Of a stretch of DNA of 64,000 bases, positions 19,049 to 23,841 are shown piece by piece. The notes below the pieces were generated by a model that had not been told where the DNA came from, searched no databases, and worked only from the letters and a program-made list of their open reading frames with translations. Both the position numbers and the translations under genes were made by a program. This DNA is from Candidatus Saccharimonadia bacterium (lineage in GTDB: Bacteria; Patescibacteriota; Saccharimonadia; UBA4664), in NCBI GenBank assembly GCA_036488585.1, contig DASXHH010000004.1:65254-129253 (forward strand), read 5' to 3'. How positions within the stretch are numbered: position 1 is the first letter of the stretch; each line of letters begins with the position of its first letter.

Positions 19049-19149
19049 AGTCTTCCAGATTTTAACAACACTCACCATACTCCAACTCTGCCGCGTACGC
19101 CAGCGTTTTATATCTAGCACTAACAAAACTGACAGTGCTGCAGAAGGCT

Positions 19150-20133
19150 TTAGTGGCTAATGCCTACGTTTATAGACGAAGAGGAGGAGTTGGTGATGTT
19201 GCCGGGCGTAACGGTACCGGACAAGGTGTTGCCATTAATGGTGATGCTGCCCGAGGTGGCCGACTGGGTAGAGTTACTGGTAATGGAGACGCTGGTGCTC
19301 GACGACGAATCCGATGAGAAGCTGCTGGTGCAGCGGACAATGTTGGTGGAGCCGGGACCGGTGTCGGTGATGCTGATGTTGGTCGGGCAGGGACTGGCGC
19401 TGGGTGACGGCGTGGGGCTGGGCGAGCCGCTCGGTGACGGCGTGGGTGACGGGCTGGTGGTAGAGACGGCCGTGAAGGTGTTGCCGGTGAGGCTAGCGGT
19501 GGATGTGAGCTGGGCGAGGGTGGAGCCGGTGGCCAGTGCGACCATTCCCACTGCCAAGACTAATACACCGGCGCGAATGTAGACGCCATCGAGGCGGCGC
19601 AGGCGGCGGATCTGACCGGCAGCTGCGGGCACAGAGCGCAGCAACGCGCGCAGATGCCGCAGCTCGGACAAAATTACCACTAGACCGGGAATAATGATAA
19701 GTAATACGAGCACCGCCGGATTGTGGAACAGGCCGAGCGCGCGGCCGAGCCCGGGCACTACGGTGGCCACGCGACCCACCACCAGACCAGCCGGCACTGG
19801 CTGGTCATTAACCTTATTGGCGTCGCCCTTGGTGGTGACGGTGGGGGTGCCATGTAGCCGGCCGGTGGCCACGATGCGGTGCGTGATGGTGACGCCGTGG
19901 TGGTGCGGGTCTTGGTAGGTCACCACTTGGCCAGGACGCAGGCTAGCAGCCGGCACCCGGTGCACCAGTACCAGCGCGCCCGGTGCGATGGCCGGTTTCA
20001 TGCTGGGCGTGAGTACATTGAGGGCCCGCCAGCCCAGTATGGGCGTGGTGAACATTATCACCAGGGCGCCGCATACCAGGTAGGCGGAGAGGCCAAGCCA
20101 TTTCCAGTTAAGTTGTGAGAGCCGGTGTTTCAT
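19150..20133 (-). CDS. SipW-like (S26B, archaeal/eukaryotic-type) signal peptidase I with C-terminal TM + cognate-motif + S/T/P-rich extension
   Basis: N-terminal TM, catalytic-Ser box LTPSMKP (cf. SGSMEP) and TKGDAN box. Then a second TM and ...TGSTLAQLTSTASLTGNTFTA..., followed by an SPSPTPSP linker and a Cys-containing tail. Confidence 0.75.
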   Translation of the reverse strand: MKHRLSQLNWKWLGLSAYLVCGALVIMFTTPILGWRALNVLTPSMKPAIAPGALVLVHRVPAASLRPGQVVTYQDPHHHGVTITHRIVATGRLHGTPTVTTKGDANKVNDQPVPAGLVVGRVATVVPGLGRALGLFHNPAVLVLLIIIPGLVVILSELRHLRALLRSVPAAAGQIRRLRRLDGVYIRAGVLVLAVGMVALATGSTLAQLTSTASLTGNTFTAVSTTSPSPTPSPSGSPSPTPSPSASPCPTNISITDTGPGSTNIVRCTSSFSSDSSSSTSVSITSNSTQSATSGSITINGNTLSGTVTPGNITNSSSSSINVGISH

Positions 20134-20156: not shown

Positions 20157-20780
20157 TTACGGTGTTGAACTCGGACTTGGGCTAACGCTGGGACTGATGC
20201 TTGGGCTGGGCGTAACAGTACCGGTGGTGGTGCCGGTGAAGTCGAGGCCGAAGCTGGCATTTGCGACCGTGGCGGTGGATAATGCGCTGCTATCGAGCGT
20301 AACCCAGACATCGTATTCCGTGCCGGAAGTGGACGGCGTGTTGGTGAGAGTGACGCCGCTGCCGGAGCTGAGATCGGCCAAGGAGGCGGAGTTGTCGGTG
20401 TTAGTACCGGTCTTCTCGATGTGGATTATGACCTTAGAGTCATCGAGGTTGGGTGCCGACACGTCAGCGGCGGTCTCGTTGACGGTCACAGTGGCGTCGG
20501 TGGCGTTCTTGAGCCAGAAATGCTGGTGAGCGGCAGATGTTCCGCCCTCAGTGAGCGATCCGAAGTTGAAGCCCTGAGTGCTGGTGACAAAGGTACCGGG
20601 CGTACCGGAGTTGTCGGGCGCGATCAGGATTCCCCCGCTTCCCACCGAAAAAGTGTTGCCGGTGAGCGACGCAGTGCCAACCGTCGCGGCAAAAGTGGCG
20701 CCGATGACCATGGCGCTGGTGCCGCCGATAATGGCCAGGCTGCGCGCTATTTCTAGTGAACGTTTACTTAAATGTGATTT
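20157..20780 (-). CDS. TasA/camelysin-like secreted protein with SipW-cognate class signal peptide (copy 1)
   Basis: N-terminus ...IARSLAIIGGTSAMVIGATFAATVGTASLTGNTFSVGSG matches the TasA-type pattern (LVGGGTWAAFND...ATFASG). Beta-rich body and PS-rich C-terminal tail. SD GGGGGTG 8 nt upstream. Confidence 0.6.
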   Translation of the reverse strand, partial: KSHLSKRSLEIARSLAIIGGTSAMVIGATFAATVGTASLTGNTFSVGSGGILIAPDNSGTPGTFVTSTQGFNFGSLTEGGTSAAHQHFWLKNATDATVTVNETAADVSAPNLDDSKVIIHIEKTGTNTDNSASLADLSSGSGVTLTNTPSTSGTEYDVWVTLDSSALSTATVANASFGLDFTGTTTGTVTPSPSISPSVSPSPSSTP

Positions 20781-20940
20781 CATTCATACACCCCCTTACG
20801 CTTGAGTAAAATCAACATAAGGTATCTTCGTCCGGCGGACCGGACCGAGCCACGTGCATAGTTCCGAAAGTGGACAGCTCGCTCCACCGGTGGAGACAAA
20901 AGCAGCTTGGCAAGCTCGGCTAATGGCGGCCTGCAGGCGC

Positions 20941-21954
20941 TTACTGAATTGTAGTCGTGGTCGTGTTCGAATTAGTGGCGTCGCCGCTCGACGCGCCGTT
21001 ATCGGAATTGTTAGGGGTGGTAACGTCGCCGGTGGTGGCCTGTTGGTTGGACTGGTTTACGACGGTGACGTTGGTTGAATTGTTAATGCTTACGTGGGAG
21101 TGACTATTCGAATTTACGTACGCCACACACTGGCCCTGATTCTTGAATCGCGGCGAGCCGTCGGGGTCCTTAAACTGCTGCCAGCCCCCATTTTTGCAAT
21201 CGTCAGCCGAAGTGGGCGCCGCCAGGACGGTAATAATGCCCTGTGATTTGACCGAATTGGTGGTAGTGAGAGCGTAGGTATAACCAACCGGTAGGACTGC
21301 CACGAGTATCAGCAGGGCCAAGGTACGGGGACCCATGCCATCCAAGCGGCGGGTGGAGCGGCGAGTCGGCTGGGTTTCGGTAGGCGCGAGTGTGGGCGGG
21401 CCGGCCGGAGGCTCCTGGTCAGGAGGGTCGGATTTGGATCCAGACAGGCCGGTAGGTTTGCGGGCAAGCGACCGGCGCAGCGTTTGGATTTCGCCCCAGA
21501 TCACGAGTAGGCCCGGAATAATGATGAGAGCCAGCAGTCCGAGCGGGCTGTGCAAAATGTTGGCCAATTTCCCAACCATGGGCAGGTGCAGAACCTCTCG
21601 CCCGACGATCCGGCCACCGGCAAATGGCAGATCCGCCACCGAGTTGGCGTCGCCCTTGGTGACCACCATGGGCAGGCCGTCCTTCACCGGCAGCGCCACC
21701 ACACGGTGAGTAATGGTTTGCTGCGGGTGGACGGGATCGGTGTAGGTGACGACATCGCCAGGATGTATATCGCGCAATGGCACGCGATGAATAATTACGA
21801 GGTCGCCCGGCTGAATCCCCGGCCTCATGCTGCCGGTTAGCACATCGAGGGCTTTCCAGCCGCCAATTGGCAACACTGAAGCTACTATCACAACCGCACA
21901 GGCGGCGTAAACGAGCAGGGCGAGCCATTTGGCGATGGAGGCAGCAGATTTCAT
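20941..21954 (-). CDS. SipW-like signal peptidase I, paralog 2, with long C-terminal extension
   Basis: LDVLTGSMRPGIQPGDLVI and TKGDANSV boxes, paralogous to 19150-20133. Followed by a second TM, a Pro-rich linker, a third TM and an Asn/Thr/Ser-rich tail with 2 Cys. Confidence 0.75.
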   Translation of the reverse strand: MKSAASIAKWLALLVYAACAVVIVASVLPIGGWKALDVLTGSMRPGIQPGDLVIIHRVPLRDIHPGDVVTYTDPVHPQQTITHRVVALPVKDGLPMVVTKGDANSVADLPFAGGRIVGREVLHLPMVGKLANILHSPLGLLALIIIPGLLVIWGEIQTLRRSLARKPTGLSGSKSDPPDQEPPAGPPTLAPTETQPTRRSTRRLDGMGPRTLALLILVAVLPVGYTYALTTTNSVKSQGIITVLAAPTSADDCKNGGWQQFKDPDGSPRFKNQGQCVAYVNSNSHSHVSINNSTNVTVVNQSNQQATTGDVTTPNNSDNGASSGDATNSNTTTTTIQ

Positions 21955-21978: not shown

Positions 21979-22536
21979 TTAGTGGCTAACGGTACCATCG
22001 CTAGTGCCGGTGAGTTGAAGCGTGAAGTCGTTCAGCGCGTTAAGCACGGGCGTAGAGGCATCGGCGGTAACCCAGGCCTCGAGGTCATTAGAAGTACTAC
22101 CGGTGTTAGCGAGGGCTCCCAGACCGGCGAGGCTCGAGTCGGAGCTGCCGCCGAGGGCGCTAAACGGAATGCTTACTGTATTACCATTAAGCATGAAGTT
22201 CATGGTTAGATGAGACTCTTCTGCACTCACGTTGGTGTTCCATGTGGTGATTTTGGCCGATAGTTTGACGCTATTGGCCGGCTCGGTTGTCTCCAAGTAA
22301 ATGTGAGTGTGGGCAACCGATGGGCTACCCGGTGCAGTACTGAATACAAAACCACTGGCGGAAGGGCCGTAGTTTACATGGTCGCTGGAAATCGACAGGT
22401 TATCGGAAACGGCTACTGCACCGGTGGCCGTCACCGCGTTGGTAGTGGTGGCTGCGAATGTAGCCCCGACGATTAGGGCGCTAGTGCCGCCAATGACAGC
22501 CACGGCGCGCGCGATTGCAAACGTTCGTACGTTCAT
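21979..22536 (-). CDS. TasA/camelysin-like secreted protein with SipW-cognate class signal peptide (copy 2)
   Basis: Start at MNVRTFAIARAVAVIGGTSALIVGATFAAT..., nearly identical in its signal region to copy 1. SD GTGAGGT upstream. The 81-codon track extension upstream of that Met looks non-coding. Confidence 0.6.
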   Translation of the reverse strand: MNVRTFAIARAVAVIGGTSALIVGATFAATTTNAVTATGAVAVSDNLSISSDHVNYGPSASGFVFSTAPGSPSVAHTHIYLETTEPANSVKLSAKITTWNTNVSAEESHLTMNFMLNGNTVSIPFSALGGSSDSSLAGLGALANTGSTSNDLEAWVTADASTPVLNALNDFTLQLTGTSDGTVSH

Positions 22537-22639: not shown

Positions 22640-23245
22640 GAGGCGTTAAAAATGAAACCGTCCGGCTGCACGAATGGCAACCGGACGAGGGGTGGCGCGA
22701 AGCCACGATGTGGTAGAACCACGGGGTCCGAGAGTTTTCTCGGGCACTTGGACCCCGTGGATTTTGTGAACCGAAGCATTCCTTGTCACTCTGCATCGGC
22801 GCCCCTAGTGTGGGGCTAGTTTATCACGCGCCATCAGTGAATCACCCGTGTTGATCCAAAGATGGTCCTCATGCTTCTGCATGGCATGAGGCTCTCGAGG
22901 AATAATATCCTGGAGGCGTGGTCCTGCTGGCCTTCCGAGACCTTGTTCCGGGTTCCATGACAAGCTGGAACGATCCGGGGTCTTGGCAGCAGGCGGCGCG
23001 AACCTTATCGGTAATCGCTGGCGCAACGGGAGGCACTTTCGCAGCGTCTGTCTAACTTCGCAGTACAGACTCGTCGCGAACTTCACGACGATTGCGATCC
23101 CGTGTGCCGGTGCAAGCGGTCGGATTTGATGGCTATGCGCCTCGCACCGATCGCTGAGGTCCCGGATATTTCCGTGGTGTGGGCCAATGATGGGCCCCGC
23201 GGATAGGTGGCCGGGTACCTCGACTATAAATCCGCCCCTAACTAA
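22640..23245 (-). ncRNA. candidate structured non-coding RNA (possible rnpB/RNase P RNA plus 3' hairpins), ending at an intrinsic terminator
   Basis: ~600 bp with no credible ORF and multiple perfect hairpins. On the minus strand GGAAAUAUCCGGGACCUC (23156-23173) resembles the RNase P P4 5' strand GGAAAGUCCGGGCUCC. GGAACCCGGAAC (22946-22958) resembles the P4 3' strand ACAGAACCCGGCUUA. A GAAAGUGCC motif is also present. The 3' end is the hairpin GUCCGG...CCGGAC followed by UUUCAUUUUU (22645-22672). Confidence 0.3.
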
Positions 23246-23295: not shown

Positions 23296-23841
23296 TTAGA
23301 GACCGAGAGCACCGAGCGCACTAGTAACAGGACTGAGGACGTGTTTAACGAGGTTGGGTACGGGATTTTCAAGCTTAACGTTAACTTGAGGGGTGGCCGT
23401 GGGGGTATGGGCCAGCAGAGTGGGAGCGGGAGTGGTTTCGGCGGCCAAAACCCCGGTGGTGGGAACAGGCGTGGCGGACGGGCTGGCTGGCGTGCGGGTC
23501 GCTGCGACGGCAACCCTTGTGGCAGCTGGCGCGGACGGGGTGGCGCGGGTCGTGGCTGGATGCGAAGGCTTAATTTCCGAGCTCACGGCCTTAATGCCAC
23601 CGGCCGCCACGGCCAGAGTGACCACAGCGATCGCCACCGAGCGGGCCCAGGGCGGCAAGATGTTACGCATAAACCATTTACGGTGGCGAAAGCTGGCTTG
23701 CACCCGCTGAAGATCAGGACCGGTCAGCACCGTGGCGAGCTGGTCCTTGGGCACCCTTAGCTTGGTGCCGTCCTGAAAAACGAGCAGCACCTCTCCGTCG
23801 CCTTCGATCGAGAAATTCGCCAACTGCTTCATAGATACCAT
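23296..23841 (-). CDS. hypothetical membrane-anchored protein
   Basis: 181 aa with a soluble N-terminus, one TM (SVAIAVVTLAVAAGGI), and a Pro/Thr/Ala-rich extracytoplasmic tail. Confidence 0.5.
   Translation of the reverse strand: MVSMKQLANFSIEGDGEVLLVFQDGTKLRVPKDQLATVLTGPDLQRVQASFRHRKWFMRNILPPWARSVAIAVVTLAVAAGGIKAVSSEIKPSHPATTRATPSAPAATRVAVAATRTPASPSATPVPTTGVLAAETTPAPTLLAHTPTATPQVNVKLENPVPNLVKHVLSPVTSALGALGL

Follow-up and report, generated by a model that had tools for sequence, protein, structure and literature searches.

SipW-type dedicated signal peptidases and TasA-superfamily fibres built by donor strands are by now known from both bacteria and archaea. In Bacillus subtilis the donor strand of TasA comprises residues 28–38, directly after the SipW cleavage site (PMC9674648). 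The N-terminus of the accessory protein TapA resembles this strand and is predicted to complement TasA, and TapA speeds up filament formation (PMC9674648, PMC10151520). A similar initiator role has been proposed for the archaeal AbpB (PMC9245690). Tip, minor and anchor proteins are likewise predicted to join TasA-superfamily fibres via donor strands, according to a survey that also noted a signal peptidase I fused to an accessory domain, DUF5305 (bioRxiv 10.64898/2026.01.04.697558). TapA itself is not conserved even within Bacillus.

Here we describe a locus of Candidatus Saccharimonadia (Patescibacteriota) in which a TapA-like element appears to be part of the peptidase itself. It lies in a 64-kb window, by which we mean the whole stretch of DNA analysed (64,000 nucleotides, positions 65,254–129,253 of contig DASXHH010000004.1, assembly GCA_036488585.1). 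Two tandem cassettes on the minus strand, in the order sub2, pep2, sub1, pep1, each encode a predicted secreted subunit followed by a Sec11/SipW-type signal peptidase with a long C-terminal extension. The two peptidases are 39% identical and the two subunits 30%. We consider it very likely that the extension is a genuine, conserved and exported element that co-evolves with its partner subunit. As to its function, our preferred reading, to which we give a probability of roughly 0.5, is that pep1 and pep2 are active peptidases fused to a TapA-like donor-strand initiator, cap or anchor that would be freed by self-cleavage.

Each Peptidase Tail Mirrors Its Own Subunit

The open reading frame (ORF) of pep1 (19150–20133, minus strand) is one unbroken frame of 327 amino acids (aa). 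After the peptidase domain and the second transmembrane helix the protein continues as ...RRLRRLDGVYIRAGVLVLAVGMVALATGSTLAQLTSTASLTGNTFTAVSTTSPSPTPS..., and direct reading of the frame gives this tail exactly as a first-pass annotation of the same DNA had quoted it. Within the tail lies the 9-mer TASLTGNTF, of which the six translated frames of the window contain exactly two copies. One copy is that of pep1 (residues 212–220; 19474–19500, minus strand) and the other is found in the mature N-terminus of sub1 (residues 37–45; 20649–20675, minus strand). The likeness continues into the c-region of the signal peptide, where GATFAATVGTASLTGNTF and GSTLAQLTSTASLTGNTF share 12 of 18 residues. When the 70 aa surrounding the third hydrophobic segment of pep1 were aligned locally with the first 70 aa of sub1, the score was 77, as compared with a mean of 29.6 (standard deviation 5.6, maximum 63) for shuffled sequences; this corresponds to z = 8.5, and none of the 5000 shuffles scored as high. 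The similarity between tail and substrate that had been proposed from inspection is thus statistically real.

The second cassette repeats the arrangement with a different sequence. The strand of pep2, YTYA/LTTTNSVKSQG (the slash marks the predicted cleavage site), mirrors the mature N-terminus of sub2, ATFA/ATTTNAVTATG, with z = 9.9 and 0/5000 shuffles, while the crossed pairs are weak (z = 2.2 and 3.5). The first-pass annotation had TASLTGNTFTA mirroring the adjacent TasA-like proteins in general; this applies to sub1 but not to sub2, which has ATTTNAVTATG instead. As neither tail matches the subunit of the other cassette, the sequences suggest that this small genome has two fibre systems that are orthogonal to each other.

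The same pairing is seen elsewhere. At all 10 loci examined in detail, a gene for a signal-peptide-bearing protein of ~186–217 aa lies immediately upstream of the fused peptidase, and at every one of them (10/10) the peptidase tail that most resembles the subunit is the one from its own locus. When the 20 residues after the predicted cleavage site were compared over these loci, own pairs had a mean score of 44.7 and other pairs 25.8, and the observed total was not reached in any of 200,000 permutations. What characterises a TapA-like initiator, a mature N-terminus resembling the donor strand of the subunit, is therefore found in both cassettes of the window (z = 8.5 and 9.9) and, as an own-partner match, at 10 of 10 loci. 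Among the other extended loci, the best match of the tail motif within the locus is in nearly all cases the N-terminal part of the ORF immediately upstream of the peptidase.

Subunits compared with one another across loci had a mean score of 28.6. As this is below the own-pair mean, the pattern is not the one to be expected if the two strands had drifted independently after an ancient duplication. Recent gene conversion was also rejected as a cause. At the DNA level the strand segments are only ~50–56% identical, the same codon is used at 31 of 75 identical residues, some serines have a TCG codon on one side of the pair and AGC on the other, and there is no surplus identity at synonymous sites between subunit and tail strands. 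Low codon sharing at identical residues makes recent conversion unlikely, and selection at the protein level would be the simplest explanation of the maintained match.

Selection on the match could also act through the peptidase. On that account the tail would be plain self-substrate cargo, or an autoinhibitory pseudo-substrate, and the likeness of the motifs would reflect shared recognition by the enzyme with no role in fibre assembly. Peptidase-substrate pairs are expected to co-evolve under recognition too, and the motif falls within the region covered by the signal-peptide model TIGR04088. However, the identity of own pairs peaks at +5 to +16 (61%), is lower at +1 to +4 (47%) and drops to 24% at +17 to +20. 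The peak lies outside the usual footprint of the substrate in the active site of type I signal peptidases, and the mirrored segment is for this reason more likely to function as part of the mature product. It coincides with the position of the TasA donor strand, the equivalent residues of TasA having been shown to form that strand (PMC9674648), which supports a donor-strand role. For a pseudo-substrate, neither a Pro at +1 nor any other uncleavable feature points to an inhibitor. We regard the recognition-only account, in either form, as quite improbable, and a donor-strand mimic like the N-terminus of TapA as more likely than a peptidase recognition motif. The term recognition motif used in the first-pass annotation needs to be changed in this respect, the zone that is actually matched (~+5 to +16) arguing for a role in the mature product.

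The Fusion Is Conserved in Many Independent Assemblies

With its 327 aa, pep1 is unusually long compared with the ~190 aa of SipW, and this is the sole ground for suspecting that a short peptidase gene and a substrate gene downstream of it were joined artificially, through a mistake in the assembly or a frameshift. The frame of pep1 is unbroken, and about 24 homologues of 290–340 aa from JGI, ENA, NCBI and Logan assemblies align along the entire extension. They share one continuous architecture, consisting of a Sec11/SipW-type catalytic domain, a second transmembrane helix, an Arg-rich loop, a third hydrophobic segment ending in (T/A)-x-A, the mirrored strand, a linker of Pro/Ser/Thr and a Ser/Thr/Asn-rich module bracketed by Cys. 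The paralogue pep2, 800 bp away within the window, is laid out alike. An identical pep1 protein is present in NCBI as signal peptidase I of a Candidatus Saccharimonadia metagenome-assembled genome (MAG).

Using a six-sequence alignment as query, we also scanned species-representative genomes and found 71 SipW-type loci, 22 of which have the extension. Twelve of the 22 belong to Saccharimonadia or other Patescibacteria and ten to Actinomycetota, including named (presumably cultured) strains of Cellulosimicrobium, Kocuria, Paenarthrobacter and Agromyces. As the frame is continuous and the architecture is kept in many independent assemblies, we rejected an artefact, which we consider extremely improbable. 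The pep1 frame with its tail is a genuine gene product without a missed stop codon, and the fusion of peptidase, hydrophobic helix, substrate-like motif and Ser/Pro-rich, Cys-containing tail described in the first-pass annotation is a conserved one.

Some loci in the scan differ from this picture. A contig labelled Nevskiaceae (L017, DATLCF010000002.1, a gammaproteobacterial MAG) carries a Saccharimonadia-like cassette that is 45% identical to pep1 over the catalytic domain and may represent mis-binning or horizontal transfer. Long SipW-type peptidases extended in other ways are found at L038, L039, L045 and L056. In Nanopelagicaceae the C-terminal tail is highly acidic and then Lys-rich, without the third hydrophobic segment, and the archaeal Halolamina has a SipW-type peptidase with extra transmembrane segments. 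Since these extensions differ, the C-terminal elaboration of SipW-type peptidases is diverse. At another locus (L004, 287–2865) the cassette adjoins genes for an exosortase of the EpsH family and an Rce1-like (CPBP) protease, that is, other sorting and processing enzymes.

The Peptidase Domain and the Internal Signal-Peptide-Like Segment

The enzyme part of pep1 begins with a basic N-terminus and a first transmembrane helix seen in the hydropathy of the sequence (TM1, residues 13–33; 20035–20097; all coordinates of this section are on the minus strand), modelled by AlphaFold2 (AF2) as a helix over residues 5–29. The catalytic domain follows (residues 34–130; 19744–20034), with Ser44 (20002–20004), His85 (19879–19881) and Asp104 (19822–19824). 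The second helix (TM2) spans residues 139–156 (19666–19719; AF2 helix 139–166). Both peptidases match TIGR02228 (archaeal/endoplasmic reticulum-type signal peptidase I) above the cutoff of 51.85 bits, with 76.3 bits for pep1 and 93.8 bits for pep2. Ser44 and His85 are invariant in 56 homologues, and Asp104 and Asp110 are at least 90% conserved. A catalytic Ser and His (plus Asp) is what sets the SipW/Sec11 type apart from the Ser-Lys dyad of LepB.

In the AF2 model the catalytic domain has a predicted local distance difference test score (pLDDT) above 95. Its best Foldseek matches are human SEC11C and SEC11A (7p2q_A, E 2e-6, and 7p2p_A, E 2e-5; target-normalised TM-score 0.63), followed in third place by SipA of Streptococcus pyogenes (4n31_A). 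Given the profile scores, the catalytic residues (two invariant, Asp104 nearly so) and the SEC11 fold, pep1 and pep2 are apparently active and real enzymes. Judged by sequence they are of the same type as Bacillus SipW but not its orthologues, the equivalog model NF046067 giving 55.6 bits for pep1 and 64.5 bits for pep2, below its cutoff of 190.

Behind TM2 comes an Arg-rich loop (residues 157–187; 19573–19665) with eight Arg against one Glu and one Asp, which would serve as n-region of an internal signal peptide. It contains a conserved RRLDG motif, and all close homologues retain R179 and D182. The positive-inside rule would put the loop in the cytoplasm and the tail on the same side of the membrane as the catalytic domain. 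The third hydrophobic segment, or h-region, has 14 residues (188–201; 19531–19572; AF2 helix 182–203), and is followed by the c-region TGSTLA (residues 202–207; 19513–19530), recognised by the (T/A)-x-A pattern of the homologues and its register with GATFA/A of sub1. Cleavage is predicted, from conservation of this pattern, after Ala207, between bases 19513 and 19512. The mirrored strand QLTSTASLTGNTFTAVS would then begin at residue 208 and extend to residue 224 (19462–19512, including the shared 9-mer).

Of the ~45 fused-peptidase sequences that we read, ~41 have Ala at position −1 and the others Ser or Gly. The residue at −3 is small in every case (Thr, Ala, Ser, Val or Gly), and none of the sequences has Pro at +1. 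The neighbouring subunits have the same T-x-A, with T30 (−3) and A32 (−1) invariant across 55 homologues of sub1. The internal segment of pep1 has TIGR04088 (cognate_SipW) as its second-best NCBIfam match, with 15.0 bits (E 0.021) and below the cutoff of 19; in the same profile scan the N-termini of sub1 and sub2 and the segment of pep2 gave zero match to this model. Taken together, the n-h-c layout with its basic n-region, the residues at −1 and −3, the T-x-A shared with the subunits and the TIGR04088 match make the third segment look like a signal peptide. The suggestion in the first-pass annotation that the peptidase is a fused, self-processed substrate would fit the conserved layout and site.

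The segment could nevertheless remain uncleaved. As a third transmembrane helix it would keep the strand tethered, so that the peptidase could hold the base of the fibre, or lend its strand transiently to new subunits until the next subunit displaces it, as the G1 strand of chaperone-usher chaperones does. The stability of the fusion across phyla is easiest to understand if the parts stay joined, and covariation of the strand with the subunit is also in line with such a role. TasA-superfamily loci often encode membrane or wall anchors predicted to join by a donor strand (bioRxiv 10.64898/2026.01.04.697558), and TapA has been termed a strand-complementing chaperone (PMC10151520). Yet a plain anchor has no need for a (T/A)-x-A that is as strictly conserved as in true substrates, nor for the avoidance of Pro at +1. 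The 14-residue h-region is signal-peptide-like rather than anchor-like, and with a strand starting ~5 residues from the membrane there would be little room to reach the groove of a subunit. An uncleaved anchor or chaperone is in our view rather unlikely.

The paralogous pep2 (337 aa; 20941–21954) has its internal signal at 21271–21363 and its mirrored strand, LTTTNSVKSQGIITV, at 21226–21270. It was first taken to have a different tail. The architecture is in fact that of pep1, including a homologous Ser/Thr/Asn-rich C-terminal module (20944–21126), with an extra Cys-bracketed insert (21127–21198).

The Tail Module and Alternative Cargo

Following the strand, pep1 has a Pro/Ser/Thr-rich linker (residues 225–248; 19390–19461, minus strand) within a stretch of low confidence in the AF2 model (pLDDT <50 over residues 204–247). 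The tail module (residues 249–327; 19153–19389, minus strand) starts with the bracket Cys249...Cys268 (CPTNISITDTGPGSTNIVRC) and continues as a Ser/Thr/Asn-rich region, predicted to be β-structured. AF2 gives it three long strands with pLDDT 52–66, and both Cys residues are invariant in close homologues. Searches of Pfam and NCBIfam assigned the module to no family. It is one copy of a ~75-aa repeat with the pattern C..I.NTGPGS.N.V.C ... N.S.Q.A.SG ... GNT.GG.ATSG.A.N, which is present in 2–5 tandem copies in many secreted proteins of 190–580 aa (P0116, P0122, P0124, P0131 and P0155 are examples).

A phmmer search of the whole library with the C-terminal 152 aa of pep1 found fused peptidases, the tandem-repeat proteins, and small proteins composed of a transmembrane segment, linker and tail module with a different N-terminal motif. 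It found no stand-alone protein combining a signal peptide with the same motif and tail. The genes of the small proteins (140–170 aa) are located between the cassette and a pyruvate kinase gene in relatives (L007, 5124–5543; L001, 10420–10842; P0119, P0127, P0167, P0170). Their products combine a transmembrane segment at the N-terminus with a motif resembling (A/V)(L/I)QIWNGS, a linker of Pro/Ser/Thr and the tail module found in pep1. In the window this place is without such a gene, pep1 ending at 19150 and the pyruvate kinase gene starting at 19126.

Other fused peptidases, in Actinomycetota and other Patescibacteria, keep the third segment and the partner-matched strand and carry other domains. 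These include LTD (P0018, P0024, P0033 and L017), dockerin repeats (P0026), Ice_binding (PF11999; 89 bits in L070 and 84 bits in L075) and Laminin_G_3 (58 bits in L043), with weak matches to Big_13 and CBM_2 in further fused peptidases; L048 and L074 are also among the loci with alternative cargo. L012 and L018 have long tails of α-helical appearance instead. Cargo as diverse as ice-binding, LamG, LTD and dockerin domains and α-helical tails resembles general secretion cargo and is as such a point for the recognition-only account discussed above. The named domains are of kinds that typically serve in binding outside the cell, and their presence supports the view that the extension is exported. 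The Arg-rich loop with its eight Arg before the third segment, a tail nearly free of basic residues and the invariant Cys pair, together with these extracellular domains in relatives, also support a location of the tail outside the cell.

The Neighbouring Subunits

The gene for sub1 (20157–20783, minus strand) encodes a 208-aa protein with a predicted signal peptide (20688–20783), the N-terminal strand ATVGTASLTGNTFSVGS (20637–20687), a core (20226–20636) and a Pro/Ser-rich tail. The tail (TGTVTPSPSISPSVSPSPSSTP; 20160–20225, minus strand) is absent in every aligned homologue. The paralogous sub2 (21979–22536, minus strand; 185 aa) was identified by its alignment with the homologues of sub1, and its start codon (MNVRTF) was picked by comparison with homologues. 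Its signal peptide is at 22453–22536 and its N-terminal strand, ATTTNAVTATGAVAV, at 22408–22452. The leader upstream of the sub2 start (22536) holds a promoter-like site (22789–22761) and, after it, a GC-rich hairpin of 12 bp with a T-run (22688–22658; the whole element at 22658–22789, minus strand). This may represent a leader or attenuator element, or the match may be due to chance. Further upstream of the cassettes, an ORF of 181 aa (23296–23841, minus strand) has one transmembrane segment and a predicted ectodomain rich in Pro, Thr and Ala.

A profile search identified 57 relatives, mostly Saccharimonadia proteins of 170–220 aa. Neither sub1 nor sub2 matched a Pfam or NCBIfam family. A distant member of the subunit family, P0111, reached 19.2 bits with TIGR04088 and was the only one of 55 to match PF12389 Peptidase_M73 (E 1.5e-4). 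When the PDB sequences were searched with the family profile, a chance match to an antibody was all that was found.

The AF2 model of sub1, based on 55 sequences, is a confident β-sandwich (mean pLDDT 82, predicted TM-score 0.72) in which motif residues 37–40 and 44–47 form strands. Its top Foldseek matches are self-complemented FimA structures (5lp9, 6erj and 2m5g; E 6e-5 to 4e-4), and TasA is not among the top 50. A comparison of the sub1 family with TasA by hhalign, with a TasA query sequence that was checked against 8AUR and 5OF1, gave a probability of 6% in a sensible register (GGxTxAAF, LxPG...FxxxNxG). The description of the neighbours as TasA-like in the first-pass annotation hence finds remote support at best, as there is no profile match and the nearest fold is that of FimA. 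On the model, sub1 is a pilin-like β-sandwich with an N-terminal strand, whose link to TasA is remote at best. The modelled strands of the motif, the self-complemented FimA matches and the covariation with the peptidase tail would be consistent with sub1 being a donor-strand subunit.

Proposed Mechanism

For the preferred reading, a peptidase that frees its own TapA-like element, we infer the topology, cleavage, strand complementation and role of the tail module as follows. The N-terminus of pep1 would be in the cytoplasm, TM1 would lead to a catalytic domain outside, TM2 back to the Arg-rich loop inside, and the third segment would act as a cognate signal peptide exporting the tail. The peptidase domain, in cis or from a neighbouring molecule, would cut after Ala207 and release a product of ~120 aa. 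The N-terminus created in this way, QLTSTASLTGNTF..., is a copy of the N-terminal strand of the neighbouring subunit and could complement a subunit as a donor strand in its acceptor groove, in the manner predicted for TapA and TasA. Insertion of the strand would prime or cap the fibre, and the linker with the Cys-bracketed Ser/Thr/Asn-rich module, or with a binding domain in relatives, would tie that end of the fibre to a surface.

Several points weigh against this mechanism. Cleavage after Ala207 by the dedicated peptidase is a prediction for which the conserved (T/A)-x-A is the one argument. The AF2 model of full-length pep1 places the motif neither in the active site nor in a groove, residues 204–247 being disordered; we take this lack of docking as uninformative rather than negative for a model of this kind. 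The FimA matches of sub1 are modest (TM-score 0.35–0.50), and the subunit family is not detectably of the TasA/camelysin type (no Pfam match for sub1 or sub2, one of 55 for PF12389, 6% by hhalign). The match of the strands is not strict, since in the closest clade the subunit keeps GTASLTGN(T/S)F but the motif of the peptidase varies (PASLTDNHF, TVSLNGNVF). Finally, what would be gained by fusing the product to the peptidase is unexplained if the product is freed anyway.

In its most complete form the proposal would make the signal peptidase its own first substrate. Enzyme, internal cognate signal peptide and donor-strand primer or anchor would then be parts of one polypeptide, the primer would co-evolve with the subunit in two orthogonal cassettes, and Actinomycetota would in the same manner attach diverse binding domains (ice-binding-like, LamG, LTD, dockerin) to such fibres at their groove end. 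This extended version we put forward tentatively, as somewhat less probable than an even chance.

If true, a primer strand on the C-terminus of the peptidase would amount to a minimal two-gene fibre system, and could explain how the tiny genomes of Saccharimonadia manage to build surface fibres, which may serve in attachment to the host. It would represent a widespread and so far undescribed coupling of subunit processing to fibre initiation that needs no chaperone, usher or sortase, and a naturally occurring fusion of enzyme and substrate that includes an internal signal peptide. Pairs of strand and subunit that covary could be used for testing the specificity of strand complementation, and many proteins annotated as signal peptidase I in Patescibacteria and Actinomycetota would be flagged as bifunctional.

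Comparison With Known Systems

In the literature library searched, queries for SipW-cognate proteins, for signal peptidases with TasA and for C-terminal extensions returned no description of a peptidase fused to a donor-strand-bearing protein, and no paper tying SipW to Saccharibacteria, Patescibacteria, CPR bacteria (candidate phyla radiation) or TM7. The nearest described counterpart of the pep1 tail is TapA (YqxM), encoded in the operon tapA-sipW-tasA. It too is an accessory protein with a SipW-cognate signal peptide (predicted in the case of pep1) and an N-terminus like a donor strand, and it supplies the first strand for growth of the fibre (PMC9674648, PMC10151520). The tapA gene lies beside that of the peptidase, the stop codon of one overlapping the start codon of the other, and TapA, like SipW, has a low stoichiometry (PMC10151520). 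In the Saccharimonadia (CPR) locus, by contrast, the TapA-like element is within the peptidase polypeptide, behind an internal signal peptide, and the gene order is subunit and then peptidase fusion. No homology of the pep1 tail to TapA was found in Pfam or NCBIfam; the Ig-like domain of TapA has no homologue here, and the cargo is instead the ~75-aa Ser/Thr/Asn-rich module of an unannotated repeat family.

Compared with SipW and Sec11, pep1 has the same catalytic domain with Ser-His(-Asp), the same two transmembrane helices and an operon with dedicated substrates. It differs in the added Arg-rich loop, the third hydrophobic segment and the 120-aa tail that is predicted to be exported, as well as in its NF046067 score (55.6 vs 190 bits). 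Another signal-peptidase fold dedicated to surface-fibre assembly is SipA (LepA) of S. pyogenes, which is needed for polymerisation of the pilus. SipA is catalytically inactive and serves pili built by sortase, whereas pep1 retains the catalytic Ser and His and bears a fused tail.

With the TasA-superfamily filaments (TasA, AbpA, AbpX, Tafi and threads) the locus shares the combination of a small secreted β-sandwich subunit and a dedicated signal peptidase I, although its subunit is not recognisable as a member of the TasA family by profile. The nearest solved fold to sub1 is that of self-complemented FimA from the chaperone-usher type 1 pilus, where an N-terminal strand completes the neighbouring subunit by the same principle. 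Besides the modest structural scores (TM-score 0.35–0.50), sequence identity is 11–14%, there is no chaperone or usher here and the organism is not a typical diderm, and the resemblance is probably one of analogy. The parts of the system are all of known kinds, and it is their arrangement that is new.

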